Source: Alphaproteobacteria bacterium (GTDB lineage: Bacteria; Pseudomonadota; Alphaproteobacteria; UBA828). From it: a stretch of DNA of 64,000 nucleotides. The position numbers were made by a program, and so were the translations under genes. Positions 6,766-41,185 of the stretch are shown here, one piece after another; positions within the stretch are counted from its first letter, which is position 1, and every line of letters starts with the position of its first letter. The stretch lies in contig CAXXVO010000011.1 of assembly GCA_963422645.2 (NCBI GenBank), forward strand, positions 116,600-180,599, written 5' to 3'. Below the pieces are notes generated by a model. It had not been told where the DNA came from, did not search any database, and was given only the letters and a program-made list of their open reading frames with translations.

Positions 6766-7101
6766 ATGACCGACCCCTTTCATATCGTCGTGGTCGAGGA
6801 CGACGCCGTGACCCGCACCAAGCTCGCCGGCTATGCCCAAGCGGCAGGCCATCGGGTGAGCGAGGCGGAGGACGGCCAGGGCATGTGGCGCATCCTCGAG
6901 AAGGATGCCGCCGATCTCATCCTGCTCGACATCAACCTGCCGCGCGAAGACGGCCTCGATCTGACCCGCAAGCTGAGAGCACAGAGCAACGTCGGGATTA
7001 TCCTGGTCACGGTGCGCGACGACGAAGTGGACCGGATCCTCGGCCTGGAGATCGGTGCCGACGACTACATCACCAAGCCCTTCAACCCGCGGGAGCTGCT
7101 C
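6766..7101 (+). pseudogene. OmpR-family response regulator, receiver domain only (3'-truncated at the IS1634 end)
   Basis: MTDPFHIVVVEDD...LILLDINLPREDGLDL...GADDYITKPFNPRELL is a complete REC domain. The reading frame then runs into the IS inverted repeat at 7099. No winged-helix output domain follows anywhere downstream. Confidence 0.75.
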
Positions 7102-9025
7102 CTGACTTCGACGGTTGGGCCGGATTTTGGCTGATCTCCCGTCTGGAGTTTTCTGCAAAGACAATGACTTAGAAGTTGCGGTGCGGTCAAGCCGCTTTGT
7201 AGTGCCTAGTAGGTATATGTGGTTGTCGATACCCCCGCCGCGCGCTACACTTTCCCCGTGTTCGTTCGCATCAAGACCACGCCCAACAGCCCGCGACGCT
7301 CGGTCCAGCTCGTCGAGGCCGTGCGCGACGGCGGCAAGGTCCGACAGCGCATCGTTCGCCACATCGGCGTGGCCATGGACGAGGACGAGCTCGAGCGCCT
7401 GAGGCAGCTCGGCGAGTACGTCAAGGCGAAGCTGGAGGACCAGCGCCAGCCTTTGCTGTTTGCGCCCGAGAAGATCGCAGACCAGGTGATCCGCGTCGGA
7501 CGCCAGGGCGACGGCAAGCAGGAACTCCCGGTCGATCTCAAGCAACTCGAAGAGGAGCAGCGCCTGATCACTGGCGTCCACGAGGTCTACGGCGAGATGT
7601 ACCGCCTGCTGGGCCTCGATGCGCTGCTGCCGCGATCGCGCTACCGGGCCTCGCACGACGCGCTGTTCCACGTGGTGATGGCACGCATCGCCAACCCCGA
7701 CAGCAAGCGGGGCAGCGTGCGCCGGCTCGAGGAGGACTTCGGCGTGAGCCTTCCCCTTGAGAAGGTCTACCGCATGATGGACCAACTCGGCGCGACCGTG
7801 ATCGAGCGTCTGCGCACGCAGGTGGGCGAGGCGAGCCGATCGCTGCTGCCGGAGCCGGTCGCGCTCCTCTTCTTCGATTGCACCACGCTCTACTTCGAGA
7901 CCGCGGTTGAGGACGAGCTTCGCCAGCACGGCTTCAGCAAGGACGGCAAGCACAAGGACTCGCAGGTCCTGCTGGCATTGATGGTGACGCGCGAAGGGCT
8001 GCCGATCGGCTACGAGGTCTTTCCCGGCGCCACCTACGAGGGGCACAGCCTGGTCCCGGTCTTGCAGGACATGCAGCGCCGCCACCAGGTGGAGCGCACG
8101 GTGTGCGTGGCCGACCGGGGCATGCTGAGCGCCGACAACCTCGACGCCATGGACACGATCGGCGGCGAGTACGTCGTCGGCGCGCGGCTGCGCAAGCTGC
8201 CGCTCGCGCTGCGGAAGCAGATTCTCGACCCGGGCACCTATGCCCCGCTGGAGGGCCCGGAGAAGCGCCGGGTCGGCGAATGGGAGCACAAGGGCCGGCG
8301 CCTGATCGTCGTCTTCTGCCCCGTGCGCGCGCGCACGGACGCACACGAGCGCCGCAAGCAGGTGGAGCGCCTGCTCGACAGGCTGGCCCGCAGCGACAAT
8401 CCGAAGGAGCTGCTCTCCAATCACGGGGCGAAGCGCTTCATCGCCGTCGAGGGCGAAGCCCGGCTCACGGTGAACCCGGAGAAGATCGCCGAGGCCGAGC
8501 GATGGGACGGGCTCGCCGGCGTCATCACCAATCTGCGCGACGCCAGCGTCACCGAAGTGATGTCTCACTACCACGGGCTCTGGCAGGTCGAGGAGAGCTT
8601 CCGGATCACCAAGCACGACCTGCGGGTGCGCCCCATCTGGCACTGGAACCCGGACCGGATCCGCGCCCACATCGCCATCGCCTTCATGGCCTTCGCCTGC
8701 GTCCGCCACCTCGCCTACCGCGTCGCCATCCAGAAGCGGCGGATGTCCCCGGAAGTCATCCGCTCCGCCCTCGTCCACCGCCAATGCTCGGTCCTGCGCT
8801 GCCGCCAATCAGGCAACCGCTACGTCATCCCCTCCAAGCCGACACCGGCGGCGGAACAGATCTATGCGACCATGGGGCTGCCCCTGACGATCACCCCGTA
8901 CCAGCTCGACTGACCGCCGACGAAACCCGGCCCGGTCTCGCAGCGCCGCCGGATGTAGTGCCTGGCCGGAAATGAGAACCGGCCAATTTCAAATACTTAC
9001 GCGAATCAACCGTCGAAGTCAGGAG
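7099..9025 (+). mobile_element. IS1634-family insertion sequence (1,927 bp)
   Basis: Perfect 19-bp terminal inverted repeats: CTCCTGACTTCGACGGTTG at 7099-7117 and its reverse complement at 9007-9025. They enclose a single 564-aa transposase ORF. No matching direct repeat flanks the element. Confidence 0.75.
7219..8913 (+). CDS. IS1634-family (IS4-related DDE) transposase
   Basis: The N-terminus FVRIKTTPNSPRRSVQLVEAVRDGGKVRQRIVRHIG is typical of IS1634-type transposases. The start could be the GTG at 7219 or 7258. Confidence 0.8.
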   Translation: MVVDTPAARYTFPVFVRIKTTPNSPRRSVQLVEAVRDGGKVRQRIVRHIGVAMDEDELERLRQLGEYVKAKLEDQRQPLLFAPEKIADQVIRVGRQGDGKQELPVDLKQLEEEQRLITGVHEVYGEMYRLLGLDALLPRSRYRASHDALFHVVMARIANPDSKRGSVRRLEEDFGVSLPLEKVYRMMDQLGATVIERLRTQVGEASRSLLPEPVALLFFDCTTLYFETAVEDELRQHGFSKDGKHKDSQVLLALMVTREGLPIGYEVFPGATYEGHSLVPVLQDMQRRHQVERTVCVADRGMLSADNLDAMDTIGGEYVVGARLRKLPLALRKQILDPGTYAPLEGPEKRRVGEWEHKGRRLIVVFCPVRARTDAHERRKQVERLLDRLARSDNPKELLSNHGAKRFIAVEGEARLTVNPEKIAEAERWDGLAGVITNLRDASVTEVMSHYHGLWQVEESFRITKHDLRVRPIWHWNPDRIRAHIAIAFMAFACVRHLAYRVAIQKRRMSPEVIRSALVHRQCSVLRCRQSGNRYVIPSKPTPAAEQIYATMGLPLTITPYQLD

Positions 9026-9222: not shown

Positions 9223-9237
9223 GGAAAGCCCCTTGCT

Positions 9238-9318
9238 CCTGGGGTTGCGGCGCGTCACCCGAAGGGCCGAAGCGCAGCGGAGGAGCCGCGAAGCGGCTTG
9301 ACGCGCCGCAACCCCAGG
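9238..9318. repeat. Perfect 20-bp inverted repeat enclosing 41 nt
   Basis: CCTGGGGTTGCGGCGCGTCA (9238-9257) pairs with TGACGCGCCGCAACCCCAGG (9299-9318). The enclosed 41 nt contains its own short GC stems, for example AGCCGC ttc GCGGCT when read on the minus strand. Confidence 0.6.
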
Positions 9319-9647
9319 TGCCCGATGCTACATGTAGTGGGTGATGATCCCTTCCAAATGATCAAATACCCGCGCTTTTGCGAGATCGACAACAATGTCG
9401 GATTTACAGTTGCCGCTAACAAGAGAATCTGCGAACCACTTGTCGGTTTGCCAACTAAAGTATGGCTTTCCAGCTCAATGGGATCCCCTGACACACGCAA
9501 GCACTATGCCGGTGCGACCGTTTGGCGATGAGGTCGAGACGGTTCCGAGGTGACCAGCAGTTCTGCATTATACTTGAGCAGTGTCGGCCCGCCCCAGTGG
9601 TTCCAACATCGTCTGAACCAGACTATCCATTTCACCCTTGGACGGTT

Positions 9648-10187
9648 TCAGATCTCAAGCAGCATGTCCAATGTCTGCTCTTCGATGTTCTCCAGCGCAC
9701 CCAAGTCCGCGACGACGGAATAGTCTGCTCGCATGACTACTGCTCGGATTACGAGTGCGTTCGGCAAATTTCCCCGATAGCCTGCTTCCACCCCCGGGAT
9801 GATGGTCCCCTGCCATGGTTCGCCCGATCCTATTCCTACACGCCGATCCACTTCCTGATTCCACACCCCCCTCAGCGTCTCTGCGTCAACAATGTCCTTT
9901 TCGCCGGCCTCACGATCAATCTCCAGCCATACGGAAAGGTCCGCATCGTGGGTCGCACCAAACCACTGCGCCCAGTTATGCCACTGGTTCCATTCGTCCC
10001 TCGCAGATGGTCCGAAGTCAAACAGACTTACCCAACCACGCGCGCTGACGAACGAACCCTTGAATCGGTTTCCCGGAGTGATAAAACCACCCCGCCGAAT
10101 TCCCCGGAACCCGTCCACACTTGTCGCATGCCACAGCCCTCGGTCCAGTACGGCCCAAGCTTCGGGTCCACATCCTCGATCTTCCAC
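9648..10187 (-). CDS. Hypothetical protein (179 aa, Trp-rich), trailing ORF of the defence-like operon
   Basis: GTG start with AGAGGAA 8 nt upstream. Its composition is protein-like (LWHATSVDGFRGIRRGGFITPG, WNQWHNWAQWFG), whereas the antisense 288-aa ORF is Cys/Pro/Ser/Arg-rich junk. No family was recognised. Confidence 0.5.
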   Translation of the reverse strand: MEDRGCGPEAWAVLDRGLWHATSVDGFRGIRRGGFITPGNRFKGSFVSARGWVSLFDFGPSARDEWNQWHNWAQWFGATHDADLSVWLEIDREAGEKDIVDAETLRGVWNQEVDRRVGIGSGEPWQGTIIPGVEAGYRGNLPNALVIRAVVMRADYSVVADLGALENIEEQTLDMLLEI

Positions 10188-10314
10188 AGATTTCGTTCCT
10201 CTACGTCTTCACGAGTAACACCGGAAAAGTTCCAAGGTCATGCAAATCGACGCCATCCTGATCCGCGCCAATGGCAGCTGGGCGCGCTCAGTCGGTTCTG
10301 TGACCAGTCAATAG

Positions 10315-13047
10315 CTACCAGTCAGTCCTCATCAATTGGGCGAAATCACGTCGAGACAGGACTTCCGTGCAGTCACGCCAATCCTTAGCGGAAGGCTCTG
10401 TAGTTGCCTTGTAACGAAGATCGAAGCCGGTGGCCTCCCGCTGCGCGCTAATGTACTCGTCCATCTTCTCTCCCAGTGTTTCAATGTTTTCTATCCACTC
10501 ATCTTTGATCGTGTCCGGCAGGGAACCGAACAAGTTGAAGCGGTCGCGCATGCGTTCTGATAACCGGTCATAAACTTTTTCGTCAACGGTCTTCTCGTTT
10601 ACAAGATTTAGCATATCGACCTTTTCTCGAGCTTGGCCGAACCGCTTGATCCGGCCGATGCGCTGCTCTAAGCGCGTAGGATTCCAGGGCAAATCAATGT
10701 TGATAAGCGTGCTCAATGTTTGGAGGTTGAGACCTTCGCTAGCGGCGTCGGTCGCAACCATGATTTTGATCTCATGTTCGGCGACCATTTTCTTTAGTGT
10801 CTCGCGTTCTATGCTAACACTGTCTCCCTTCTGATAGAGACGAGTGCGGGACGCGCCAGCATACAGACCAATGGCGAGGTTTGGATACCGAAGTGCTAGC
10901 GAGTCCGCCATCCATATCGCTGTGTCAAAGTACTGACTGAAGATGATCACTCCATGGTCTAGCCATTTCTCGCGATTCAAGAAATGAATTGTAGCCTGAA
11001 GCTTTGGATCGCTCTGAATTCGCTCTAAGCGTTCGATGAGACGCTCCAAAGCCATTCTCTCATCCGAGCTCTCAACCGCAAGCTCGATGACTTGTTCTTC
11101 CGTTTCTTCCTCGACGGTGCGACCTGACAGAAGCGTCTTAGCGGTGCTCAGCCCTGCAGCTATGCTGGAGCACATACGTTGCTCCACGAGGTTCTTCATG
11201 AATCCGCTGCCCTTGCCTCTCCGGGAGAGAGCTTTCCCAAAAGCCCGGGCCTCTTGGTACGCTTCCCTGAAATCGTCATTTGTGCGAAGAGCCCTGCCTT
11301 CGAACAAGGCGTCAAAGAGCTGGACATCGCGGATGTACTGCCGGTCAGGGTGCAGATCTACGCCAATCCGTGGCAGTAGACCGGCGTCTTCGAGGTCAGA
11401 TCGCTTGCGCAAAACGATGTGCCGTATGAAGGGATTCTCACGCTGGAAAAAAGCGGCGCCCGACATGTCGCGCTCCAGCTCCTCCTCTAAGATCTCCCGC
11501 GTGTCACCCGACAAATCAAGCAGGGTTGCGCCGCACTCAGTCTGCCTATCCGCAAGACCAAGATCCTGCCGGATGGCACCAAAAAGTCTTCTTGCCTTTG
11601 GTTCATCCGTTGAGTTGACAACTGGCAATGGCGAGCGGAGAAGGTTCCAACCCAAATCGGGTTCCACGACTTGAGTATGCCCAGCAATTAGGGGGAGAAC
11701 CGCATCGGGCTGATGCCACCAAGCGTAGTCGTTTCCAAGAACAAAGTTCCCTTTCCCTTGATGGAGAAGGCGCATAAGATCCCACAAATCTTCCGAGCGC
11801 GTCTGGATTGGGGTGGCAGTTCCTAGAAGCACATGATCGCTTCTCTCTGCGATAGCTCTGGCAAATGCGAGGAGTTCGTTAGGTGTGCCTGCGTCTCGCC
11901 CGAAACCTTGGCGACTTCGCGCCTTGTGCGCTTCATCAAGTATGATAAGACCAAAGCGGAGCCCCAATAAGTGCTGCTTTTCCAAGCTATCGCGCATCAT
12001 CAGGCCAGTTGACACAATACCAATTCGAAGTGGACAGCGTACGATTTGCTCTCGCCCTACCGGAGCAATGGCGCGATCGTCGTGGTCGAGCCAAACCTTC
12101 TTCTGAGTATCCCAGCGCGCGCAAGGAATACCCAACTTGTCGATCATTTCCGTCTGCCACTGTTCGCAGAGTGTTGCAGGTGCAAAAATGACGACAGGTT
12201 TTTGTCCAATGTTTGATTTATCTTGAAGGAGGCATAGGGTGAGAGCTGCGGTGCCCAGCGAAAGGGTTTTTCCAAGGCCAACTTCATCAGCCAACAACAG
12301 TCGAACTATGCCATGATTGGAGTAGTGGCGCAGGCACTCGGTCAGAAAGCCCTGCTGCCAGGGTTGAAGTGAGAAGCCTTCTCGATAAAGCGGAGCCTCG
12401 ATGAGCGCCGCAGGTGCAATGTCTGCGGAATCTTCGATCTCGTCGAATAGGACCTCGCGACGATAGCCACGCCGGTGAACCTCTCGGATGACAGCGCGCG
12501 GCAGCTCCTTGGAAGCATTCCAGAGGAACTCGAACTCTTCCTCGATCCAGACAACGCCTTCTGGCGACGAGTCCTCCCAGAGAATTTCGTAGTGGCGCTG
12601 CCAGCCACTGCTGGTCTCGTTCATCGAACCGATGAATCCGAGCTTTCTCCCATCCTCACACTCAATCACCCCGGCCTTGCCATGGAGGAAGCCGCACACA
12701 TTGTCGGGGGCAACCCGGACCGCCTGGCCGTGCTTCTGAAGAAACGTGTCCAGTCGGCGATACCGCTCTCGGTTCAAGAGCGCTTCCGCCTCAAGCCCGC
12801 GTTCATTCCACCGCCCGATCAACTTGGCTTCTCGGAGCTTCGCGATCCTCAGATCATCAGGGTGAATATCGACATTGCAGACGATCCTTACTTCCGGAAT
12901 GTGGTCCAGCAGTTCGCCGGCCACTTCGAAAAGCGAGCTAGTGAAGTAGCCGGCGATCCGCTTGTAACTGCGAGCACCCTTGAGGTGCTCGAACAGCACC
13001 GTTTGATCCAGACGATGTGTCCGTGAAGAGAACCGACGAATGGCCAT
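10315..13047 (-). CDS. PLD-family nuclease domain fused to an SNF2/SWI2 superfamily-2 helicase
   Basis: N-terminal PLD-like HxK motif FLHGKAGV (12667-12690) followed by GSMNETSSGW. SNF2 motifs are LLADEVGLGKT (motif I) and LIILDEAHKAR (DEAH, ~11926-11937). Helicase-C motifs are ATDAASEGLNLQ and DLPWNPTRLEQRIGRIKRFGQ. Confidence 0.9.
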   Translation of the reverse strand: MAIRRFSSRTHRLDQTVLFEHLKGARSYKRIAGYFTSSLFEVAGELLDHIPEVRIVCNVDIHPDDLRIAKLREAKLIGRWNERGLEAEALLNRERYRRLDTFLQKHGQAVRVAPDNVCGFLHGKAGVIECEDGRKLGFIGSMNETSSGWQRHYEILWEDSSPEGVVWIEEEFEFLWNASKELPRAVIREVHRRGYRREVLFDEIEDSADIAPAALIEAPLYREGFSLQPWQQGFLTECLRHYSNHGIVRLLLADEVGLGKTLSLGTAALTLCLLQDKSNIGQKPVVIFAPATLCEQWQTEMIDKLGIPCARWDTQKKVWLDHDDRAIAPVGREQIVRCPLRIGIVSTGLMMRDSLEKQHLLGLRFGLIILDEAHKARSRQGFGRDAGTPNELLAFARAIAERSDHVLLGTATPIQTRSEDLWDLMRLLHQGKGNFVLGNDYAWWHQPDAVLPLIAGHTQVVEPDLGWNLLRSPLPVVNSTDEPKARRLFGAIRQDLGLADRQTECGATLLDLSGDTREILEEELERDMSGAAFFQRENPFIRHIVLRKRSDLEDAGLLPRIGVDLHPDRQYIRDVQLFDALFEGRALRTNDDFREAYQEARAFGKALSRRGKGSGFMKNLVEQRMCSSIAAGLSTAKTLLSGRTVEEETEEQVIELAVESSDERMALERLIERLERIQSDPKLQATIHFLNREKWLDHGVIIFSQYFDTAIWMADSLALRYPNLAIGLYAGASRTRLYQKGDSVSIERETLKKMVAEHEIKIMVATDAASEGLNLQTLSTLINIDLPWNPTRLEQRIGRIKRFGQAREKVDMLNLVNEKTVDEKVYDRLSERMRDRFNLFGSLPDTIKDEWIENIETLGEKMDEYISAQREATGFDLRYKATTEPSAKDWRDCTEVLSRRDFAQLMRTDW

Positions 13048-13071
13048 GTCGCGGGCCTCTCCCTGAGCGCG

Positions 13072-16000
13072 CTACTGGTTGAACGCGCGGAGGTTCTTGA
13101 TCCGTCCGCCGAGAATCTCGGCTGCGTCCCGCACTTCTTGCTCAGGCGCCCTCCGCTCGATGAACGAGAGCATGTCGATCAGCAGCGGACGCACCTCGAG
13201 GAAATCCGGGAGGTCTTCCTGGATCTGGCTGACGACCACGGACGGTTCCACTTCCGCTAGAAGCTGCTGTAGGCCGATTATCAGCCGTCCGAGCCAAGTC
13301 GGCCCGATCTCCGTGCTGTCCGTCAGGTCGCGGGATGTGAACTCGGTCACGCGCTTCAGGCGAGCGCTGTTCGCCGCCATGTTCCCCATGACATTTCCGT
13401 AGTCAGCAACCCGAAACGCCTTTGCGAAGTTCTGATAGTTGTCGAGCTTGCTGGCGCCCGTCGTTTCCATGTCTATCATGCGGAACAAGAACCGCTGGAT
13501 GCCTGACAGACGGGACCAAGTCTCAGCTTTCAGCCCCTCTGGCACGAGAAGGCTATTGGCCGCCTCAGCCGCCTGCTGGACGATCTCATCGACGACCGTC
13601 TCCTCACCCCGCTGACGCGGACGCAGGGCGAAACTCGTCACGTCCTCTCCACCGATCTGCGTGTAGGACGTCAAGACCTTCAGGGCTGCGGCGAATCCCG
13701 CCATCTGAAGATCGGCGTCGTTGAAAACCGACTCACCGAGCTTGTCCTTCACCTCCTCATTGAGGTGCATCATGCTCTCAATTTGCCGCTCCACTTCGGT
13801 ACGGACGGCTGGGAGGATGCGTTGCTTGAAGCCAGGGCGTTCGCCCGCTGGCCGCTTGCGCAGCATCAGGATGACTGTGCCCTGGACGTAGCCCCCCTTC
13901 TTGAGCTCGGAAGTCGTTTCAGTGGCGATGTACCAGGCCGCTATCACCTGCAGGCCCGCAGCCCAAAAAATGCCGACCATGTCGGACCAGACGCTGGTGT
14001 CCTGATGGGTGAACATCACGCACTGCATGCCGTTGTCCGGCATGTGCTCCGCCATCGCCCGGTAGGCGTCGACCATACCGCGCCTGAAATCGTCGCCAGA
14101 ACCCTTGATCGCAAATGCCCGGCGCGAATCCCAAGTCCAGTCACGGAACTCCTTCGGCGGGTTCCGTCGCAGCCAGGCGATGAAGAATTCCGTGATCTCG
14201 TGGTAGTTCACGGCGTCGGCGTACGGCGGATCGGTCACCCAATATTCGCAGCTGCGCGAAAGCTGATTGGCGGGAGCGGAGACGACCTCCCGTTCGACAT
14301 CGGGCAGTGCCTCCTCCGCCATTCTGAACGACCCCGTGCCGTAGCCTGCCCAAGACCGGGTGGCATAGTTGTAGAAGGTGTTGAGCGCTTGGTTTGAGAA
14401 CACGCCTTTGGGACCTCCGAGCCCGCCCCCTTGTGATGTTGCCCACCGGCACAGTCGTGAGTTGAAGTCGGCCATTTTTGCGACGTTCAGCCATCCAAGC
14501 GGTGCGCCTGGTGACTCCCGCCACGCTTTCAGCGCCAAGGCCTGCAGAAGCAGTTGTCGTGGGTTGAAGAGATGGTGCCAGTAAGTCCAGCCGCGGGTCC
14601 GGATGGGCTCGTCTGTCTTGGCGCCAGGTTCGATCTGCATGTCTGGCGTCAGGCCATCGGCTTGCCAGGCTGCAAGGTTGTCCGCCACGATCTGTTCGAC
14701 CTTGCGTTCCCGCTCCAAGTCGGCCTCGGTCACACTGCGGAAGTAAGTGATCTGCCGCGGCTCGTAGATCGAGTTCTTCGTAATCCATTGGATGGCGTAG
14801 AGCCGCTCCTGGAAGATGTCGTCTTCGCGCGGATCAAAATCAAGCTTCTCCCAACGGCGCAGCCTGTTGGAGGTTGCCCCATCCGGGCCGCGATAATCCC
14901 CGCGAAGGGTCTTCACGGGAGCCCGATAGGTCTTTCCGTCCAGTCCGTAGACGAGGGCGCCGCCGTGGATCGTACCCCTTTCGGCAGCCTTCAGGTCTTT
15001 TGCGGAGACGTTGCTGACCACCTCGATCTCGAAGCGCTTTTTCGAGTGATTGGGTGTCAATTTCGCGATGGCGCCGAGTTTCGGCGAAACGATCCTGCTA
15101 GGCAGCATTGGCACCATCCAGCCGGTCTCCGGGCACCTGGTTTCGAGGCAGTACAGGTACGCTTTGCCGCGGTTCCCCTTATCGTCATGCTCGACTCCGA
15201 GACGGATCAGTTCTTTATCAACCTTTTCAATGACCGTGTTCTGGGCCTCTTCGAACATTGCGCGGCGCTTCTTCGGTGCGCCAATGATGTTTATCGCACC
15301 CCAAGTGAGCATGCAGGCGATCGGGTTTAAATCGGCAGCGTAGGCATCGCAGCCCATTCGCGCGGCTTCAAACGGAATGGAGCCACCACCGGAGAAGGTG
15401 TCGCCAACGCGCGGTCTATGCCCGAAACGCAAGAAGCCAAGCTGTTCGACAAGCTCAGGTAAGGAGCTGGCCTCGATTCCCCATTGCTCATAATGCTCAT
15501 TCACAGCGGGCCAAATCGGAGCGTATAGCCAGTTCTGATCTACCTCTTCCGGACGCTTGCAGAAGCTGGCTTTCTCTTCATAGGTCGCAAATGTCGCAAG
15601 CGCCTGTTCGATTAGCCGGAGTTTCGCATCGTCCAGTAAGTCGCGTGCCCAGCGGAGCGAGATACCTTCTTCATCTGCGTCGAACGGACACTCTAGGTTC
15701 AGCAGCCGGTCATCCTCGAGCAGCTCGTCACGGTCTTTGAAGGTGAAGTAGTCCCAAGGGTTCGACAGCGTGATGCGGGCCGCGATGTGCTTTGGCTTGA
15801 GGACGTTCTGGATGAACGCGCGCCGCGCAAGCCCATGGTCGTCGAACGCCATGAGCTTCTCGAAGATCCCGAGGTCTTTCTCGCTGTCGCCTGTCTGCGG
15901 CAGCAGCGATCCCAGCACCACGGCACGCACCAGGATAAGTGGTTTGCGGCCCTTCCAGTAGGAGCCGAGGCTCGTCAGCGTCTGAGCGGCGACCGCTTTC

Positions 16001-16098
16001 CGCTCCGACTGAGCTTCGAAAGACACCTTCTGCGCGGGGAAGACCGCCTGGATCAGGGCGGGTACATCTTTCAGGGAAACTGAAGTGACTTCGTTCAT
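13072..16098 (-). CDS. DUF1156-type DNA methyltransferase (DPPY, N6-adenine/N4-cytosine class)
   Basis: DUF1156-like N-terminus (LGSYWKGRKPLILVRAVVLGSLLP). AdoMet motif I is DTFSGGGSIPFEAARMGC (15380-15403). The catalytic motif IV is WVTDPPYADAVNY (DPPY at 14221-14232). Confidence 0.9.
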   Translation of the reverse strand: MNEVTSVSLKDVPALIQAVFPAQKVSFEAQSERKAVAAQTLTSLGSYWKGRKPLILVRAVVLGSLLPQTGDSEKDLGIFEKLMAFDDHGLARRAFIQNVLKPKHIAARITLSNPWDYFTFKDRDELLEDDRLLNLECPFDADEEGISLRWARDLLDDAKLRLIEQALATFATYEEKASFCKRPEEVDQNWLYAPIWPAVNEHYEQWGIEASSLPELVEQLGFLRFGHRPRVGDTFSGGGSIPFEAARMGCDAYAADLNPIACMLTWGAINIIGAPKKRRAMFEEAQNTVIEKVDKELIRLGVEHDDKGNRGKAYLYCLETRCPETGWMVPMLPSRIVSPKLGAIAKLTPNHSKKRFEIEVVSNVSAKDLKAAERGTIHGGALVYGLDGKTYRAPVKTLRGDYRGPDGATSNRLRRWEKLDFDPREDDIFQERLYAIQWITKNSIYEPRQITYFRSVTEADLERERKVEQIVADNLAAWQADGLTPDMQIEPGAKTDEPIRTRGWTYWHHLFNPRQLLLQALALKAWRESPGAPLGWLNVAKMADFNSRLCRWATSQGGGLGGPKGVFSNQALNTFYNYATRSWAGYGTGSFRMAEEALPDVEREVVSAPANQLSRSCEYWVTDPPYADAVNYHEITEFFIAWLRRNPPKEFRDWTWDSRRAFAIKGSGDDFRRGMVDAYRAMAEHMPDNGMQCVMFTHQDTSVWSDMVGIFWAAGLQVIAAWYIATETTSELKKGGYVQGTVILMLRKRPAGERPGFKQRILPAVRTEVERQIESMMHLNEEVKDKLGESVFNDADLQMAGFAAALKVLTSYTQIGGEDVTSFALRPRQRGEETVVDEIVQQAAEAANSLLVPEGLKAETWSRLSGIQRFLFRMIDMETTGASKLDNYQNFAKAFRVADYGNVMGNMAANSARLKRVTEFTSRDLTDSTEIGPTWLGRLIIGLQQLLAEVEPSVVVSQIQEDLPDFLEVRPLLIDMLSFIERRAPEQEVRDAAEILGGRIKNLRAFNQ

Positions 16099-16731
16099 TC
16101 AGGTCTCATCATCAAAAAGGTCGAGCGTCGGTCGATCGCTGGCCTTCCCGATTTGTCGTCTGGCGCAGGGCTGCATAGCGTCACTCTGCGCGACATCTCC
16201 CAACGCATGCTTCAGGGCGAGTCGCCAGCCGCGGCCGCCATCTTTCACCGTTCCGGTGGCCATGGCAGTCATGCCGAAGAGCCACCACCGTTCCTCCGGC
16301 CGAAGCGCCAGCCAGTTGCGGACGGCGACAGGGATCTTTTCTATCTCTAGGTCCTCGACCGCCCACGCCAGAACGCAGATCTCCTTGCCGAGCAAACGGT
16401 CGACAGGGTTTTCACCTACTTTCCAGGCAGATGTCCTCAACCCGTGCGCCTTCAGCCGTGCATTGAACGCGCGCTGGACTTCGCTGCGGATGGCAGTCCA
16501 ACGCGGGCGTTCGAGCACGATGCGATCCATGACGGCGAACTCATCGCTGCTGGCTTGCATCCCGAGGTATTCGCTGATCTGGACTTTGCCAGAGTTCGCC
16601 GAAGGAATCCGGACCTTGAAGTGGTGAGGGTCCGAGGTCGCAGGCACGCCAAACCCGAGCGTCGGATTCGCCTCACGGCCGTCCCTGGCGTCCAGGTTCG
16701 TCCTCCTGCCTGCTGTCTGCCCTCTGGACAT
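16099..16731 (-). CDS. Small conserved-operon protein, probably DUF3780 family (210 aa)
   Basis: The ORF abuts the methyltransferase start with no gap and begins 3 nt after the ATPase stop. The DUF3780 assignment rests on its position in DUF499/DUF1156 clusters as I remember them, not on a recognised motif. Confidence 0.65.
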   Translation of the reverse strand: MSRGQTAGRRTNLDARDGREANPTLGFGVPATSDPHHFKVRIPSANSGKVQISEYLGMQASSDEFAVMDRIVLERPRWTAIRSEVQRAFNARLKAHGLRTSAWKVGENPVDRLLGKEICVLAWAVEDLEIEKIPVAVRNWLALRPEERWWLFGMTAMATGTVKDGGRGWRLALKHALGDVAQSDAMQPCARRQIGKASDRPTLDLFDDET

Positions 16732-16734
16732 GCC

Positions 16735-19700
16735 CTATGCCTCCTGCACCACGTCCCCGGGTCTTAGATCGAGACCCGCGATCTTGGCGAACTCCTTCGC
16801 GGCGAAACCGTTCTCGAACTGGACGCCGTCGCTAATCGTAATGGCGACCGGCGCCTGAACTTCCTGCAGGACCTCGCGAAGGCTGTTGACCACGCCTTCG
16901 ATCATTGCAGCCGTCACTGAACGCTCTTGGAAGCGGACAGTGACAGTATTCTCACCTTCACCGATCTCAATTCGAACGCCCTTGAAGAGCGTGCTCGCGT
17001 TTTCCTTGAACGTGTTGATGACGCCGTAGACCCGGTCGGTTGTATCGAGAGACACTCGCTTGCCCTGAAGCCGGGCCGGCTTCGTATCGTCAATCTGAAT
17101 CCGTTTGTCCCCGCTCGCGGGGATCTGGAAATCAGCCGAATTGTTAGCCTCGCCAGCGCGGGCGTAAACGAGCAGGCGGACAGCCTCAGGCCCGATTTCG
17201 AATGGCTCGCTGTACTCGATGCCGTCCTTGGGATTGGACCCGTCGAGCGAATACGTAATGAACGCTCGAGGGGTCGATTGCAGCGTCACGCGGCGTTTAT
17301 CGGCTGCGGGATCAACCTGGTGCCGGATCTTCAGCTCCGCTACCCAACGAATCGGCGGACCGCTTTCAAATTTCCCTGTCGGCTCGTTGACCCAAAAATA
17401 GAGCGAGCCTTCTCCAGTGGAAAAATTGTCCATGTCCTCGACCTTCGGATCAGTTTCACTGACCTCCGGCTTCGTCGAGTAGTGGATGATAGGGCTGTCG
17501 CCCGCGTTTCGCGGTGTCAGGCTGAGCAGGGACTCCCCGGTTTCCGGATTGTTGCCCTGAACTGATACGTTCACCGTCGCTTTTTCTTTCGGGAACGGCC
17601 CTTTCTCGATGTAGCCGTTCTCCCCAAAGCGCCATCGCCCTTGCTTAAGCGCCTCCGTCTTCAGAGTATCCATGCCCCCGGAACCCGGCATCCAAGGCCA
17701 CACCGGAAGGCTCTTCCCGCGACTAAGGACGTCTTTCCACGGGGTGCGACGATTGTCTTTGCCCGAGGGCCACAGATACTCCTCAGCCATCGCAAAGTAC
17801 GGACTAAAGTCTTCTGTCATATCGAGCGCTAGCTTGTAGTTGGCGCGTGGGCTGGCGAGCAGCTTCTCGATCTGAACTTCAGCCGACTGGTCCCCGTCGC
17901 CGACTTTCAGGCCGTTGTCGATGGTCACGGCGACGAGCCGCTCGCTTCCGTCCGTTTCCTCAAGAGCGGGGAAGTAAAGACGGTTGTAGCCAGCTGATAG
18001 GGCCTTGTGAAAGCGGTCCACCGCTTCCTCGAAACGATCTCGCGCCTCTTCATAGAGGGTATCGCCTGACTTCAGTCTCTTGGAGATTTGCTCGATCGCA
18101 TAGAGCTCCCGCAGACGGTCTTCCACAGCGTCAGCAAGATGACTGTCCTGACCAGTCAAGACTAGCAGGTTGTTCTTTTCCTGTTGATAATTGAAGAAGT
18201 TTTCGAGCTCACTCGGAGGCATACGGCCATCTGAACGGATCACGATCAGCACTCGTGGACCGGAAAGACGCAATTCTTCCAGTTTCGGAAGGACCTGCAG
18301 TTCTTGGTATGCGTGTTTGCTAGCAGGCTGAAGAATGCCCACAAGCCGATTCACCAGGGCTTGATCGATCTTTGGCTGCGGTACCTCCTTCGCGGTACGT
18401 TCGATTTGGCGTGAGAGGTTCTCAGTCTCCTTGATCAAGAAGCGCTGTTCCTCGCGATGCAGATACCACGCATGTTCGCGCAAGCGCTCAAGCGCGGCTA
18501 AGAACTCATCGGGCTTTCGGTTCGGGGCTGCGAGAAATTCAATGATCTCGCTGTCAGACAGACCAATTCTTCCCCCAACCGCGCGCGAGAGCGAAGCTGC
18601 AAGCAGCAAGGTCATAACTTGTTGAGCGGCGTCTGTGCCCAGCTCGGCATCGACAGTTTCTGAGATTGCGTTGCCGCTGTCTGCAATGTCACGGGTGACG
18701 GCAGGCAACAACTTGGGGGCGATCCGCTCGACCTCATCCCGGGCTTGGTCGTCATTAAGATCAATGTGTTGGGTACCAATGAGGAAGACATCATCCAACG
18801 TCCGCTGCTCAACGCTCTTTAGAAGACGAGCAGTGAACTGCATAAGGCCGCGCGTCTGGCGGAACCCCTCGTTTTCCTTGAAGAGCGCTACAAGGTGCTT
18901 GAAGGAGGGGTGGAACGGGTAGGTCTCACGGACTTGCTCTGCGATTTGCTCGATGCTCGACGCCACGATGTACCCGCCGTCCTCCGCTTTCTTGACCTGT
19001 TGCGCGTATTCCTCGGCGATATCCGAAATCGTTCTCTCGTCGGGCAGTTTATCGATTAGTCGCTTGTTAAGAATTTCGTAGATTTCGTTTCCAGCTAGTT
19101 GCACGGGAGTAATCGTCATTGCCTGACGCCGCGCCTCTTGCTGAAGGTTTGTAATAGCCTCAGATAACGCCTTACTTTGTGACTTATAGCTTCCAGAGAG
19201 ATTCGCGATGACAATCGCACAATTAGGAAGTTCCAAAGCCGCGCTCATCAACGAGCTGAGGCTATAAACGACCATGTCGGCCAATGTGCCCGTACCTACA
19301 GCTTGTGTTGCGGCGTTCTGGAGGTAGGGTGGAAGCTCGTCAAGAAGTATCAGCGTTGGGATGTCGCCGATAATTTCCTTCCATTTCCGTTGATCGACGG
19401 CCTTGGGACCATTCGCCCAGTGCGGACGAATCGCCTCGTCCGCGCTGAGTTGAGTAGCGATCTCACCCCAAATATAGTTATCCGGATTATTTCTTCCGTT
19501 GAACGCTGCAATCCGAGCCTCGTCAAATTCGACCCGGTCATTGAGCTCGGAGCGAAGAACTTCTGCTCGTAGATAAGGATGGCGTGCCAGAAGGCCGAGC
19601 GCAATCATCATGTGGGTCTTACCACCGCCCATGGCTTGAGTTAGCTCAAAGACCGCTTGATCTGACTTTCCGGATAGACGCAGCATTCCCTCTTTGAAGA

Positions 19701-19857
19701 GCTGCTCCATTCCGTGTGTTACGTAATTCCGAGCGAAGAACTCTCGTCCATCGCCATGGTCAGCAATCAAATCAGCAAGGTGCTCAATTCCTTCAGCCAT
19801 CCGGTAATCTCGGATTGCCGGATTAAATGTGCATGCTTGCTTTACTGTCTTGATCAT
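16735..19857 (-). CDS. DUF499-type P-loop ATPase (BrxC/PglY-like, COG1483-like), 1040 aa
   Basis: Walker A is AMGGGKTHM (19609-19635) and Walker B is PTLILLDELPPY. The protein is very large with a long non-ATPase C-terminal region. Confidence 0.85.
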   Translation of the reverse strand: MIKTVKQACTFNPAIRDYRMAEGIEHLADLIADHGDGREFFARNYVTHGMEQLFKEGMLRLSGKSDQAVFELTQAMGGGKTHMMIALGLLARHPYLRAEVLRSELNDRVEFDEARIAAFNGRNNPDNYIWGEIATQLSADEAIRPHWANGPKAVDQRKWKEIIGDIPTLILLDELPPYLQNAATQAVGTGTLADMVVYSLSSLMSAALELPNCAIVIANLSGSYKSQSKALSEAITNLQQEARRQAMTITPVQLAGNEIYEILNKRLIDKLPDERTISDIAEEYAQQVKKAEDGGYIVASSIEQIAEQVRETYPFHPSFKHLVALFKENEGFRQTRGLMQFTARLLKSVEQRTLDDVFLIGTQHIDLNDDQARDEVERIAPKLLPAVTRDIADSGNAISETVDAELGTDAAQQVMTLLLAASLSRAVGGRIGLSDSEIIEFLAAPNRKPDEFLAALERLREHAWYLHREEQRFLIKETENLSRQIERTAKEVPQPKIDQALVNRLVGILQPASKHAYQELQVLPKLEELRLSGPRVLIVIRSDGRMPPSELENFFNYQQEKNNLLVLTGQDSHLADAVEDRLRELYAIEQISKRLKSGDTLYEEARDRFEEAVDRFHKALSAGYNRLYFPALEETDGSERLVAVTIDNGLKVGDGDQSAEVQIEKLLASPRANYKLALDMTEDFSPYFAMAEEYLWPSGKDNRRTPWKDVLSRGKSLPVWPWMPGSGGMDTLKTEALKQGRWRFGENGYIEKGPFPKEKATVNVSVQGNNPETGESLLSLTPRNAGDSPIIHYSTKPEVSETDPKVEDMDNFSTGEGSLYFWVNEPTGKFESGPPIRWVAELKIRHQVDPAADKRRVTLQSTPRAFITYSLDGSNPKDGIEYSEPFEIGPEAVRLLVYARAGEANNSADFQIPASGDKRIQIDDTKPARLQGKRVSLDTTDRVYGVINTFKENASTLFKGVRIEIGEGENTVTVRFQERSVTAAMIEGVVNSLREVLQEVQAPVAITISDGVQFENGFAAKEFAKIAGLDLRPGDVVQEA

Positions 19858-20099
19858 TCTGATTGTCCCACCTGACTTTCGGACTTAACTGAGTCCTTCA
19901 CAAGAACACCGTTTCGCTGGTAGTAAGCGAAGATATTGACCTCGACCAATTTGTCGATAGAGCGATGCTCCTCCCGCGCGGCGGCGCGAAGCATGTCGTT
20001 CACACTCGGCTCTATACGGAGCGTAAGCGTTGCGGTCTTGTTCTCCACCGTCACGGCTTCTCGGGAAAGCTGCGAATGTACCGCATTTCGCAGTATCAC
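19854..20099 (-). CDS. Small ribbon-helix-helix (CopG/Arc-like) protein, putative operon regulator
   Basis: 81 aa with a GTG start. TLTLRIEPSVNDMLRAAAREEHRSIDKLVEV fits a beta-strand/helix/helix RHH pattern. Its stop overlaps the ATPase start codon (ATGA). Confidence 0.55.
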   Translation of the reverse strand: MILRNAVHSQLSREAVTVENKTATLTLRIEPSVNDMLRAAAREEHRSIDKLVEVNIFAYYQRNGVLVKDSVKSESQVGQSE

Positions 20100-20160
20100 A
20101 TTGCAGTCTGGATTGCCTAATCAAAAGCGAATCAAGGGACAGCACAGGAAGTTCCGGTTG

Positions 20161-21572
20161 GGTCAAGTGCGAGAAGTGCTGGATATTTTGGTTTGGCGTG
20201 CTGGAGCTGAGGCCTTTGTGCCGAGGCCGTTGGCGGCCTCGTATTCTCGGTCGATCTCCTCTCTGACGGCGCGCATCTGACGACGCTCGAGCTCGCTGAC
20301 TCTGATGGCGCGCCAACGCTCGGCGGCGCGGATCATGGCGCCGAACATGAGCTTGAGCACGGCCTTCTCGCCGAAGGCGTTGGGGATGATCTTGAGCCGC
20401 CGGCGCTCCTCGACGAACAAACGCTCGAGGAGGTTCGTGGTGCGGATCGCGCGGCGGTGCGCGATCGGCATGCGCAGATGCGCGATGCAGGCCTCGAAGT
20501 CATCCATGAAGCAGGCGCCCGCACTCGGCAGTTCGGCCTGGTAATCGGCGACCACACCGCCGGCGAGATCGCGGGCGATGGCGCGGGAGGGGGCCTGGTA
20601 GGCAGCGATGACGCGAGCCTTGAACTCCGGCCAGAGGTCGTCCGGCACCTTGGCAGCCAAGTTCCGCATACGATGGGCGAGGCAGCGCTGGCGCTCCGAG
20701 CGCGGGAAGCAGGTCTCGATCGCCTTGACGATGCCCGGTGCGCCGTCCGAGACTACCAGCAGAGGATCGCCGAGGCCGCGCCTGCGCATGTCCTGGAAGA
20801 ACGCGCTCACCGTCTCGGCGTCCTCCTTGGAGCCCGCCATCAAATGCAGCAGAACCTTGCCGCCAACCCACGTGAAGCCCCAGGCCGCCAATACTGGCTC
20901 GCGCTTCTGTCCGGGCCGGATGCGCTCGGCGATGCCGTCGACGAACAGATAGGCGATGTCGTACTCCGACAGATCGCGGTCGGCGAACTCCTGGTAGTCC
21001 GCCCACAGCCGCTCGCCGATCTCCGAGACCGCACTCCGCGACAGCAACAACCGTCCGCTCTCGTCCCGGAACGCGTCCTCGATGTCGCGCACGCTCAAGC
21101 CGCGAGCCAGAAGTTCCACCGCCAGGTCCTCAAGCGCCTGGGTGCGGCCCTTCAGGCTCTCGCGGATATCCGAACGGAAGGGCTCCTCACGACCAGCGAT
21201 CTGCGGTGCCGCGTAGTCCACCAGCCCCTCCGCCGTCTTCAGGCGACCCATGCGCACGCCGTTGCGCCAGCCTTGGCCGGGGGACGCGCCGTGCTCGTAG
21301 TAGTCGCGGCCGAGTACGTCCCGGCTCTCGGCCTCCAGCGCCTCCTCGACAATCAAACGGGTCGCCAGCTTCACCAGCTCGGCACGCCCGTCCGCCGACG
21401 ACAAACGGCCTTCGATCAGATCCGAAAGGGATTCGCGCGTGCGCATCGACGCGGGTACTCTCTTCGACATGGGGTGCCTCCTTGCTGGCGCCGGCGGCAA
21501 CCGGCACCGGTTGGTGAATCCTCAGCGAGGATGCACCCCAACCTAAATTTCCAGCAAGTCTAGGACTTCACC
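20161..21572 (-). mobile_element. IS256-family insertion sequence (1,412 bp) with 9-bp target-site duplication
   Basis: Imperfect ~40-bp terminal inverted repeats (GGTCAAGTGCGAGAAGTGCTGG... versus the reverse complement GGTGAAGTCCTAGACTTGCTGG...). The direct repeat TTCCGGTTG lies immediately outside both ends (20152-20160 and 21573-21581). Confidence 0.85.
20163..21500 (-). CDS. IS256-family transposase
   Basis: 445-aa ORF (ELVKLATRLIVEEALEAESRDVLGRDYYEHG..., typical IS256/mutator-type). The more likely start is MSKRVPAS at 21470. Confidence 0.9.
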   Translation of the reverse strand: MPPAPARRHPMSKRVPASMRTRESLSDLIEGRLSSADGRAELVKLATRLIVEEALEAESRDVLGRDYYEHGASPGQGWRNGVRMGRLKTAEGLVDYAAPQIAGREEPFRSDIRESLKGRTQALEDLAVELLARGLSVRDIEDAFRDESGRLLLSRSAVSEIGERLWADYQEFADRDLSEYDIAYLFVDGIAERIRPGQKREPVLAAWGFTWVGGKVLLHLMAGSKEDAETVSAFFQDMRRRGLGDPLLVVSDGAPGIVKAIETCFPRSERQRCLAHRMRNLAAKVPDDLWPEFKARVIAAYQAPSRAIARDLAGGVVADYQAELPSAGACFMDDFEACIAHLRMPIAHRRAIRTTNLLERLFVEERRRLKIIPNAFGEKAVLKLMFGAMIRAAERWRAIRVSELERRQMRAVREEIDREYEAANGLGTKASAPARQTKISSTSRT

Positions 21573-22379: not shown

Positions 22380-22670
22380 TCACGCCAAGTCGCGCCGCCC
22401 TCGCTCTCCTGCGAAGCGGAGGACCGGCGCGAGGCGGGCGGCGAGCGCGGCGGAGCCGAGAGCGACCAGATCGTCGTTGAAGTCACCGCCCTCGGGGGCG
22501 ATGATCTGGGCGACCACGCCCGTCCGTCCGCAGCGCCGGGCGAGGCGTTCCCCCGCCCGCTCCCCTTCGATGTCGTTGTCTCGCGCGATGACGAGGCGGG
22601 CTGTGGCGGGCGGAGGCGCGAACACGCCGAGGCTCCCGGCCGAGAGCCGGGTCGTCGTCCCCGCCGACAT
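22380..22670 (-). pseudogene. C-terminal Toprim-domain fragment (conjugative primase-like)
   Basis: LVIARDNDIEGERAGERLARRCGRTGVVAQIIAPEGGDFNDDLV matches the DxD ... DFND Toprim pattern. Only ~96 codons remain. Confidence 0.5.
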
Positions 22671-23448
22671 GCTGGCGGCGATGTTTCAGCAGGGAGCAAG
22701 CTACGAGGGCGATCCGCAGCTCTATACCCACTGCGTGATTTTCAATGTCGTCAGAACCTGCCGCGACGGCCGGTACCGCTCGCTTCACCAGAAGCCGGCC
22801 TACTTCCGGAAGATGGCGGCGGGTGCCGCTTACCGCAATGCGCTGGCCTGGAACCTGCGGACGCGTCTCGGCATCCGCATGGAACAGTACGGGCCGGACG
22901 GCGCCTTCACGCGGATCGCCGGCATCCCGGAGGCGCTGGTGGCTCACTGGTCGAAGCGGCGAAAGACCATCGCAAAGTCCGGCGGTGCGGGATCGTGCTA
23001 CAAGTTGGACTATCGAGTCAGGGCGCTGGGAGGGGCCAAACGGCATGAGCGCTGGAGTAGCGAGTGCGCCGACTTCGTGGATCCTGGGGAGCTGATCGGC
23101 TCCTTGATCGGGCAGGAGGTTGGACAGCCGCCCGATACCCCTTTTGAACGGGCGTCGTGCACGGATGCCGTGCTCGCGAGGCTGGCCGCCCGCACCGAGG
23201 GCGTCCGGCTGTGCCAAGTCGTCCAGGCAGTGGAGAATGCGGCCGCCGGCCTGTTCGATCGGGCCGCGACCGCGGATATCCTCGCGCGTGTTCTCCAGGC
23301 GGGCATGGTGGTGCGCCGGCAGTGTCGAGATGGGCAACGAACGGCGGGTATGGCGGCAGCCATGATTGCCGGCCCGTTGCGGTGGACGAGACAATGGGAG
23401 TTGAGATCGGCTGGTCGCAGACGGGTCGCATCCGCGTTCGGGGATTGA
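22663..23448 (+). pseudogene. TrwC/TraI-type relaxase fragment (internal part only)
   Basis: GDPQLYTHCVIFN...RIAGIPEALVAHWSKRRKTI matches the relaxase histidine-triad region. The N-terminal catalytic-Tyr region and the C-terminal helicase are absent. It abuts the Toprim fragment head-to-head. Confidence 0.55.
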
Positions 23449-24300: not shown

Positions 24301-25276
24301 CTACGCCGCACAAGTATGGCGCAGGTCATGAAGCCGCACGTCGCGCAAGTCGGCTTCCCCGCGGATCCGTCGCCACGTCTCGTCGAGGCCGTTATGGCTG
24401 AGGGGGCCGTTCGTCATCGGCGAAGGGAAGATCCAGCTTGCCGTCTGCGGCACGCGGTCCAGGACCGCGCGGGCGGCAGACGACAGCCAGACCGTTCGCG
24501 GCCCGGTTTTGCTGTCCGGCAGGAACAGCTTGCCCTCCCGCCGGTAGCGCCACTTCAGCGTGCGAACCTCGCTCGCGCGACAGCCGGTCAGCAACAGCAG
24601 CCTGACGATGGCGACCTGCTGCGGACGGTGGGCCTCGAAGCGGTCGAGCACCGCCGCCAGGCTGCGCATCTCCGCCGCCGACAGGAACCGTTCGCGTCCC
24701 TCGCGCCGGTATCGCTTGATGCCCCTGCACGGGTTGCTGCCTTCCGGGCGATAGCCGTAGATCTCGGCCTGGCGCATGATGACGGACAGGATCGGAGCGG
24801 CCCGGTCCGCCGCCGCGGGCTTCGCGTGGAGCGAGGCGAACCACTGCCGCACGTCGCGGCTGTCGATGCCGGCGATCGGGCGGCCCCTGAAGCACGGCAG
24901 GATATGGTTGCGGTAGTAGTTCCGGTTGACCTTGAGCGTTCCGGGCTTCCAGTTTCGCGCGTAGCGCCTGAAGACCTCGTCGGCAACGGCCTCGAACAGG
25001 GCTTCTTCGGGCGATGCGGGCGCGTCGCCGCCTCGCCGGATCGCGGCGAGCATCGTCGCGGCCCGCGCGGGCTTCATCGGCGCTCGCGCTCCCGGCGCCG
25101 GCGACGGTCTTCCAGATGCGCCGGCCCTCGTATTGGCTGTGGATGAAGTGGCGTTTCTTTCCCGACGGCCAGACCCGCAGGCCGAAGCCCTTCAGCTCCC
25201 TGTCGCGCACATCGCAGGCGGAGTTGCGGGGTTTCAGCGCATCGACCCGGCGCTGGTCGAGCTTCACGGCAGGCAT
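24301..25276 (-). pseudogene. Tyrosine integrase (DUF4102-type N-terminus), frameshifted and 3'-truncated
   Basis: GGGGAGGAAAAGCCC precedes the ATG at 25276. MPAVKLDQRRVDALKPRNSACDVRDRELKGFGLRVWPSGKKRHFIHSQYEGRRIWKTV is in one frame. The frame switches near 25065 to ...AATMLAAIRRGGDAP...LLLLTGCRASEV...HDLRHTCAA-stop. The region carrying the catalytic Tyr is missing, and the sequence turns AT-rich at 24300. Confidence 0.7.
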
Positions 25277-25540
25277 GGGCTTTTCCTCCCCCGAACGGTT
25301 GCAGGCGGGGCGGAAACACCTCTGGAATCCGCCCCGATCCACATCTGCGGGAGGAAAAAGAAGGCTCAATTCGTGAATCGTAGGCGTCGTGGTAGAATCT
25401 TTCCGGATTCGCCCTGGAGGTGTCAACGCCGGATGAAGATTCGGCCAGAGGGCGGCGCAAGAGACTGCCACTCTGGGTGATGCGTGGTTGTGACGGTTTT
25501 TCGGCGGGCGCGGTCCGTGGAGCCATCCAGAGCTCAAGCT

Positions 25541-41099: not shown

Positions 41100-41185
41100 C
41101 AGTGTCGCGCTGGCACGAGGACCTCGCTGCCCACGACGAGGCCTTCGCGTGCCTGCAGGACCTTTTCACCCCACAATCCTTCGCA

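Follow-up and report, generated by a model that had tools for sequence, protein, structure and literature searches.

The window analysed here, a 64,000-nt stretch of contig CAXXVO010000011.1, contains five tightly packed genes, mtsR-mtsA-mtsB-mtsC-mtsD, at 10315-20097 of the minus strand. Very probably, these genes form a complete operon of the MANTIS defence system, which is also known as Gao_RL, GAO_29 or the Type-2 DUF499-centred BREX-related (BR) system, see Table 1. All five genes and a further 179-aa open reading frame (ORF), here called X179, lie on the minus strand, where a sequence-only reading of the same DNA had placed them. The junctions that it reported also agree with the coordinates: a 4-nt overlap is followed by spacers of 3 nt, 0 nt and 24 nt, and 127 nt separate the last operon gene from X179.

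The module, as delimited by homology to related loci, extends from ~10311 to 20160. The GC content is 0.51-0.61 over 9-20 kb versus 0.64-0.73 in the flanks, and the GC content at third codon positions (GC3) is 0.60-0.75 in the operon genes, compared with 0.84-0.91 for the transposase and transporter genes nearby. Because both values are lower than in the flanks, the block is compositionally foreign, and the earlier description of a 10.5-kb block that is AT-richer than its surroundings is borne out. The operon has been acquired horizontally and is now bracketed by insertion sequence (IS) elements. A terminator scan after mtsD found nothing convincing.

Table 1. Operon genes, the upstream element and neighbouring features, in positions of the window.
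Feature	Position	Strand	Description
mtsR, likely true extent	19854-20054	minus	ribbon-helix-helix (Arc/CopG-type) putative repressor
81-aa ORF as called (GTG)	19854-20099	minus	
Operator-like DNA element upstream of mtsR	20070-20097	minus	
mtsA, 1040 aa	16735-19857	minus	DUF499 AAA+ (ORC/Cdc6-clade) ATPase
mtsB, 210 aa	16099-16731	minus	standalone DUF3780 protein
mtsC, 1008 aa	13072-16098	minus	N6-adenine DNA methyltransferase, N-terminal DUF1156
mtsD, 910 aa	10315-13047	minus	N-terminal HKD/PLD nuclease fused to SNF2-type superfamily 2 (SF2) ATPase
X179, 179-aa ORF (GTG)	9648-10187	minus	outside conserved module
IS256/Mutator-type element	20161-21572	minus	Transposase_mut 3.7e-61; 33-nt imperfect inverted repeats 20161-20193 / 21540-21572
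IS4-type element	7099-9025	plus	DDE_Tnp_1 transposase 7219-8913; perfect 19-nt inverted repeats 7099-7117 / 9007-9025
Inverted repeat	9235-9321		23 nt, 96% complementary, 41-nt spacer, non-coding
TrwC relaxase fragment	22477-23448		model positions 130-240 only
Long ORF	24392-26806		DDE_Tnp_1 and Arm-DNA-bind_3 matches
IS66 family transposase	40985-42637		
DUF4372-DDE transposase	44168-45331		

The core proteins and their assignment

The four large ORFs, mtsA to mtsD, are uninterrupted and full length relative to the family models. A Pfam profile search recovers DUF499, DUF3780, DUF1156, PLDc_2, SNF2-rel_dom and Helicase_C, i.e., all the families that the sequence-only reading had expected. In NCBIfam, MtsA scores 1503 bits against the equivalog NF042962 (anti-phage-associated DUF499, cut-off 1200), MtsB 280.9 bits against NF042961 (anti-phage-associated DUF3780, cut-off 200), MtsC 1357.5 bits against NF042963 (anti-phage-associated DUF1156, cut-off 1000) and MtsD 1190 bits against NF042964 (phospholipase D-like anti-phage protein, cut-off 1100). 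In the PADLOC run that the same reading had proposed, the dedicated DUF499 model matches MtsA with E = 0 over model positions 1-1022 of 1022, DUF1156_MTase matches MtsC with E = 0 at full length, PLD_Helicase matches MtsD with E = 0 over positions 1-905 of 905, and two DUF3780 models match MtsB (1e-95 and 9e-74). Since the four core proteins pass the NCBIfam cut-offs and match dedicated PADLOC models, the locus is identified as MANTIS/Type-2 BR.

All catalytic motifs quoted in the earlier reading were recovered in the three largest proteins. In MtsA, the Walker A motif GGGKTH (K80) lies at 19612-19629 and the Walker B motif LILLDE (E174) at 19336-19353. MtsA also contains an Fn3-like beta-sandwich at aa 854-908 (Pfam Fn3_assoc 9.9e-06, CHB_HEX_C_1 2.4e-05); FnIII-like domains ahead of the C-terminal domain of the ATPase are reported for 53% of Type-2 taxa (PMC12839542). 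In MtsC, DUF1156 covers aa 19-73, motif I FSGGG lies at aa 235-239 (15382-15396) and motif IV DPPY at aa 623-626 (14221-14232). MtsD consists of PLDc_2 (aa 21-176), SNF2-rel_dom (247-432) and Helicase_C (693-804), and carries the motifs HGK (H122), GLGKT (K260), DEAH (371-374) and the motif VI QRIGRIKR at 795. A sequence search of the PDB gave no informative match for MtsA, MtsB or MtsC, and with MtsD it found generic RapA/SNF2 motor cores only.

MtsB matches Pfam DUF3780 with 4.6e-76 and its gene sits between mtsA and mtsC. The presence of a standalone DUF3780 gene is a marker specific for Type-2 systems. The MANTIS preprint writes "DUF3870" for this protein, while it is DUF3780 in Pfam, NCBIfam and the NAR paper cited next.

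Type-2 BR systems were defined by Rakesh and Krishnan (NAR 2026, PMC12839542) as a DUF499 ATPase, a standalone DUF3780 protein, a DUF1156 N6-methyltransferase and an HKD-Swi2/Snf2 helicase, and were found in 1120 taxa. Shaw et al. (bioRxiv 24 Sept 2026, 10.64898/2026.09.23.753747) renamed the system MANTIS, with the components MtsR, MtsA, MtsB, MtsC and MtsD. According to that preprint and PMC10855318, Gao_RL and GAO_29 are this same gene set. The family models and the architecture agree with the earlier view of a restriction-modification (RM)-like, BREX-related defence operon made of a methyltransferase, an ATPase and a nuclease-helicase. That reading knew of no mechanistic or target-motif description; the MANTIS preprint gives motifs, hemimethylation, component requirements and structures. 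The defence operon is thus real and was correctly delimited. No new kind of defence is seen here: the operon is an ordinary representative of a system that has been named, validated experimentally and described mechanistically before. What the window adds is one alphaproteobacterial-type MANTIS copy to a catalogued system with dedicated NCBIfam and PADLOC models. There are two modest by-products, discussed below: a near-invariant putative MtsR operator, and an uncharacterised small-protein family with an ADP-ribosyltransferase-like predicted fold on mobile elements.

Related loci, recognition and mechanism

When representative genomes were scanned with MtsB, 218 relatives were confirmed. The nearest of these, with ~90% identity, come from Paracoccus, Hyphomonas, Thermohalobaculum, Antarctobacter and similar alphaproteobacteria, and a plasmid collection gave only ~70%-identity matches. 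For the comparison of gene content, 80 related loci were fetched. These show the same R-A-B-C-D order, with mtsA present in 79, mtsC in 74, mtsD in 65 and mtsR in 62, there immediately before the DUF499 gene; where a gene is missing, the reason is mostly a contig end. Among complete E. coli genomes, 17 of 5426 carry the operon. Extra sequence is seen in many related operons: ~1.7 kb between mtsB and mtsC (e.g. L037-L039 and L065), ~3 kb between mtsC and mtsD (e.g. L014 and L027), or both (e.g. L036, L051 and L054). Such stretches, presumably due to an MtsB extended by fusion or to inserted auxiliary genes, are absent from the window.

The E. coli UMNK88 locus was taken as the representative of Gao_RL/GAO_29. 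Its RefSeq annotation lists a CopG ribbon-helix-helix (RHH) protein of 69 aa, DUF499, DUF3780 (366 aa), DUF1156 and PLD proteins, and an extra, overlapping restriction endonuclease. It shares the R-A-B-C-D operon and the NCBIfam names with the window, and the protein identities are 43% for R, 75% for A, 71% for B, 65% for C and 75% for D. However, MtsB of UMNK88 carries a C-terminal extension that is lacking in the 210-aa protein of the window, and its additional, overlapping endonuclease gene follows mtsD, at the place taken by the unrelated X179 in the window.

The experimentally studied system, from P. aeruginosa AZPAE15024, was compared by its published description. Its five genes, their order and the domain architectures agree with those of the window, and an Arc/CopG-type regulator likewise lies upstream. 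The residues that were mutated there, K80 and E174 of MtsA, D621/Y624 of MtsC and H122 and K260 of MtsD (10.64898/2026.09.23.753747), are all conserved in the window, at identical or almost identical positions (K80, E174, D623/Y626 within DPPY, H122, K260). The window differs in belonging to another lineage, in a diverged MtsC recognition region and in an mtsR gene without the canonical ATG.

In P. aeruginosa, the asymmetric 6-bp site CAACAC is hemimethylated by MtsC at its third adenine; in a near-identical system the site is CAACAG. Methylation requires MtsB as well as ATP binding and hydrolysis by MtsA, while restriction requires all four proteins and both ATPases. Swapping the target recognition domain (TRD) of MtsC changes the specificity of modification and restriction together. 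Unmodified sites in inverted pairs are restricted far better than direct repeats. MtsR is a repressor, and its loss raised restriction. The hemimethylation and restriction behaviour is known only for this system, with PacBio motifs from REBASE in addition (all from 10.64898/2026.09.23.753747).

For the window copy, what is directly observed is which genes are present and in which order, the families they belong to, the intact catalytic residues, the conserved element upstream and the foreign composition; its activity, recognition sequence and regulation are proposed by homology to the P. aeruginosa system. We suggest that the AAA+ ATPase MtsA would load the methyltransferase MtsC onto DNA, that MtsB would stimulate methyl transfer, and that ATP hydrolysis by MtsA would permit turnover. 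As a result, a short asymmetric site, of 6 bp in the systems studied so far, would be hemimethylated at N6 of adenine, and the variable central region of MtsC would determine its sequence. When incoming DNA is unmodified, MtsABC bound to a site would recruit or activate the dimeric PLD-nuclease/SNF2-motor MtsD, which would then restrict the DNA, most efficiently at inverted site pairs. A conserved element immediately before mtsR is probably bound by the RHH repressor MtsR, which would keep expression low.

Within the family, MtsC is the most variable component. Over 59 homologues, the identity per 50-aa bin is 0.38-0.68 for aa 100-600 but 0.79-0.90 for aa 650-900. The loci L002, L003, L005 and L009, otherwise ~76-79% identical to the window in DNA, have their homology interrupted only within the variable part of mtsC. 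This part of the window protein (~aa 100-600) spans the TRD segment that was swapped in P. aeruginosa (aa 444-527), and the pattern is consistent with a specificity determined by MtsC. In L004, the closest relative in which the upstream region is similar, a 1.5-kb insertion (11391-12884 of that locus) splits mtsC at a position equivalent to ~15342 of the window; this is probably an IS-disrupted copy.

Several other known systems share parts of this logic. Type-3 BREX (BrxC / PglXI / BrxHII) has a homologous ATPase, methyltransferase and helicase, and both BREX and MANTIS hemimethylate asymmetric 6-bp sites. However, MANTIS lacks PglZ, BrxA, BrxB and BrxL, has an explicit nuclease effector and restricts in an orientation-dependent manner. 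Canonical BREX, with its PglZ phosphatase, BrxA, BrxB, BrxC and PglX, does not fit the window either: no PglZ, BrxA, BrxB or BrxL model of PADLOC matches any of the six ORFs, and there are weak matches to PglX (1e-06) and to the helicase core of BrxH. Hemimethylated asymmetric sites and a preference for inverted pairs are also found in RM systems of Types III and ISP, and a dimeric architecture of PLD nuclease and SF2 motor is found in SauUSI. In contrast to these three, the orientation rule of MANTIS is graded, its methyltransferase needs an AAA+ loader and DUF3780, and MtsD, which itself lacks a target recognition domain, acts on unmethylated DNA. DISARM was also considered as a candidate and rejected: MtsD scores 199 bits against the DrmD equivalog NF038317 (cut-off 610), and the operon contains no DrmB or DUF1998 protein.

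The regulator, the upstream element and alternative readings

The sequence-only reading described an 81-aa RHH ORF at the start of the operon. There is indeed a gene of this regulator family at this place, but its 5' end was over-extended. The homologues of mtsR begin at an ATG 4-5 codons ahead of an invariant KTATLT motif. In the window this codon is ACG and in-frame GTGs lie on both sides of it; translation must therefore begin at a neighbouring GTG, likely at 20054 (66 aa) or 20048 (64 aa) and not at 20099, which gives a true length of ~64-66 aa. Pfam RHH_1 is matched by 10 of 11 MtsR homologues (best 8.5e-07), and at the family level the RHH assignment holds.

Upstream of mtsR lies a conserved DNA element, which in the window reads GATACTGCGAAATGCGGTACATTCGCAG and holds a 7-nt inverted repeat, CTGCGAA/TTCGCAG. 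Its 16-nt family core is TGCAGTACATTTGCAG. The position of the element was compared across L001-L080 and L084, and in 57 of 60 loci the core, with at most 2 mismatches, precedes the KTATLT codons by 44-46 nt. Only 4 other matches exist in the 2.87 Mb searched. The same core is found upstream of the RHH gene in E. coli UMNK88, and the element occurs in alpha-, beta- and gammaproteobacterial MANTIS loci, while the adjacent RHH proteins are only ~40-50% identical. When translated, the region upstream of mtsR contains an "AVHxQ" segment; because L004 has a stop codon within it, the segment is conserved as DNA and not as protein. The element is probably an MtsR operator that overlaps the promoter. 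No operator is mentioned in the MANTIS preprint (10.64898/2026.09.23.753747).

The assignment had been proposed differently in the sequence-only reading, which favoured "Hma", the Type-1 DUF499-centred BR system (PMC12839542). Hma (HmaABC) does resemble the window in its DUF499 ATPase, its DUF1156 N6-methyltransferase, its Swi2/Snf2 helicase-nuclease and its RM-like logic, both types being DUF499-centred and BREX-related, and the PADLOC models of HmaC (7e-44), HmaB (2e-21) and HmaA (2e-37) do match. These Hma matches are, however, only partial; with the dedicated Type-2 models, the proteins align over the whole length with the far stronger scores given above. Hma has a three-gene core that lacks DUF3780, and in its helicase (HmaA, DUF3883-type) TUDOR stands at the N-terminus and a PD-(D/E)xK nuclease at the C-terminus; the standalone DUF3780 gene and the N-terminal HKD/PLD nuclease of the window are hallmarks of Type-2. 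The Hma assignment was rejected on this domain architecture and has next to no probability left.

For the reading as a MANTIS operon that works as in P. aeruginosa, a number of points weigh on the other side. The window MtsR itself gives only marginal direct matches (Arc 0.036, PHROG Arc-like repressor 4.9e-04), its helix 2 has diverged (HRSIDKLVEVNIFAYY versus the family consensus HRSIANMVEVLIRDYC), and its canonical start codon is lost. Expression could also be changed by the IS256-type element, which is situated ~75 nt upstream of the operator core. A strict sigma-70 consensus scan upstream of mtsR found no promoter, although such a scan says little in a host with high GC that is probably an alphaproteobacterium. 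The nuclease activity of MtsD is without a direct in vitro measurement in the preprint (10.64898/2026.09.23.753747), and the 2020 validation (Gao et al. 2020) is known as cited in later papers (PMC10855318, 10.64898/2026.09.23.753747). The state of mtsR, the nearby IS element and the missing consensus promoter could mean that the operon is silent or decaying here, deregulated by the IS element or left with a non-functional MtsR, and some relatives are visibly disrupted, such as L004 with its split mtsC. However, the four large ORFs are intact with all catalytic residues kept, in-frame GTGs flank the lost ATG, and the loss of MtsR in P. aeruginosa raised restriction and did not abolish it; we regard a silent or decaying operon as unlikely. 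Somewhat less probable still is that the cassette is chiefly a selfish addiction or stabilisation module of a mobile island, or an epigenetic regulator, and not a phage defence. Around it lie IS elements as well as a fragment of a TrwC relaxase and the remnant of an integrase-like gene. Further, an MtsC of P. aeruginosa that was catalytically dead but still competent for targeting could be transformed only together with a nuclease mutation in MtsD, which points to an RM-like post-segregational potential. Yet the outright deletion of mtsC was not toxic there, and homologous systems restrict phages and plasmids experimentally. Such a role would also come in addition to defence and would not be an exclusive alternative to it. 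A complete MANTIS defence operon remains the preferred reading.

Mobile-element surroundings and the gene X179

The surroundings were described earlier as an IS-riddled island, which is a fair description as IS elements are found on both sides of the module, see Table 1. On the upstream side, the IS256/Mutator-type element starts exactly where the homology to L004 ends (20160). On the other side, mtsD is followed by X179 and then by the IS4-type element. To the left of the locus there are ordinary chromosomal genes (OpuAC/ABC transporter, GCV_T), and there is no tRNA gene within the window to mark an integration site. The TrwC relaxase fragment and the long ORF that follows it appear to be left over from a conjugative or integrative element. 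Further transposases of the IS66 family and of the DUF4372-DDE type are located at 41-45 kb. A low-GC patch at 44-46 kb was tried as a second defence cargo and rejected as further IS elements; it is explained by the DUF4372-DDE transposase that lies there.

X179 had been included in the system as an orphan ORF. This could not be upheld: it is not part of MANTIS, because it is found in 0 of the 80 related loci and the homology to the closest loci stops at 10311-10314, i.e., at the stop codon of mtsD. It is nevertheless a real gene outside the system, with 91 homologues, a good AGAGGAA ribosome-binding site and a coding-like GC content at the three codon positions. Neighbours of the homologues are IS66 elements, integrase/Uma2 fragments or an AAA_15/AAA_21 ATPase; MANTIS is in no case among them. 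No match to X179 or to its 47 aligned relatives was found in Pfam, PADLOC, NCBIfam or PHROGs.

An AlphaFold2 model of X179 is confident, with a pLDDT of 89.6. In the PDB, the structures that it matches best have the ADP-ribosyltransferase fold, namely those of cholera toxin A1, heat-labile toxin, DarT and pertussis S1 as well as Tpt1 (E = 2e-04, with TM scores of only 0.36-0.49). The invariant residues of the family are W19-H20-A21-T22, F58-G59, W87-L88-E89, R92 and G132-V133-E134. With considerable reservation it can be speculated that this unannotated family, with its ADP-ribosyltransferase-like predicted fold and a candidate H...F...E catalytic triad, may be an undescribed toxin or defence effector of mobile elements, located here where other MANTIS loci carry auxiliary nucleases. 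Separately, and as part of the same tentative proposal, the 16-nt element upstream of mtsR may be an undescribed MtsR operator that sets the expression level and hence the stringency towards site orientation. The short non-coding inverted repeat listed in Table 1 lies between X179 and the IS4-type element.

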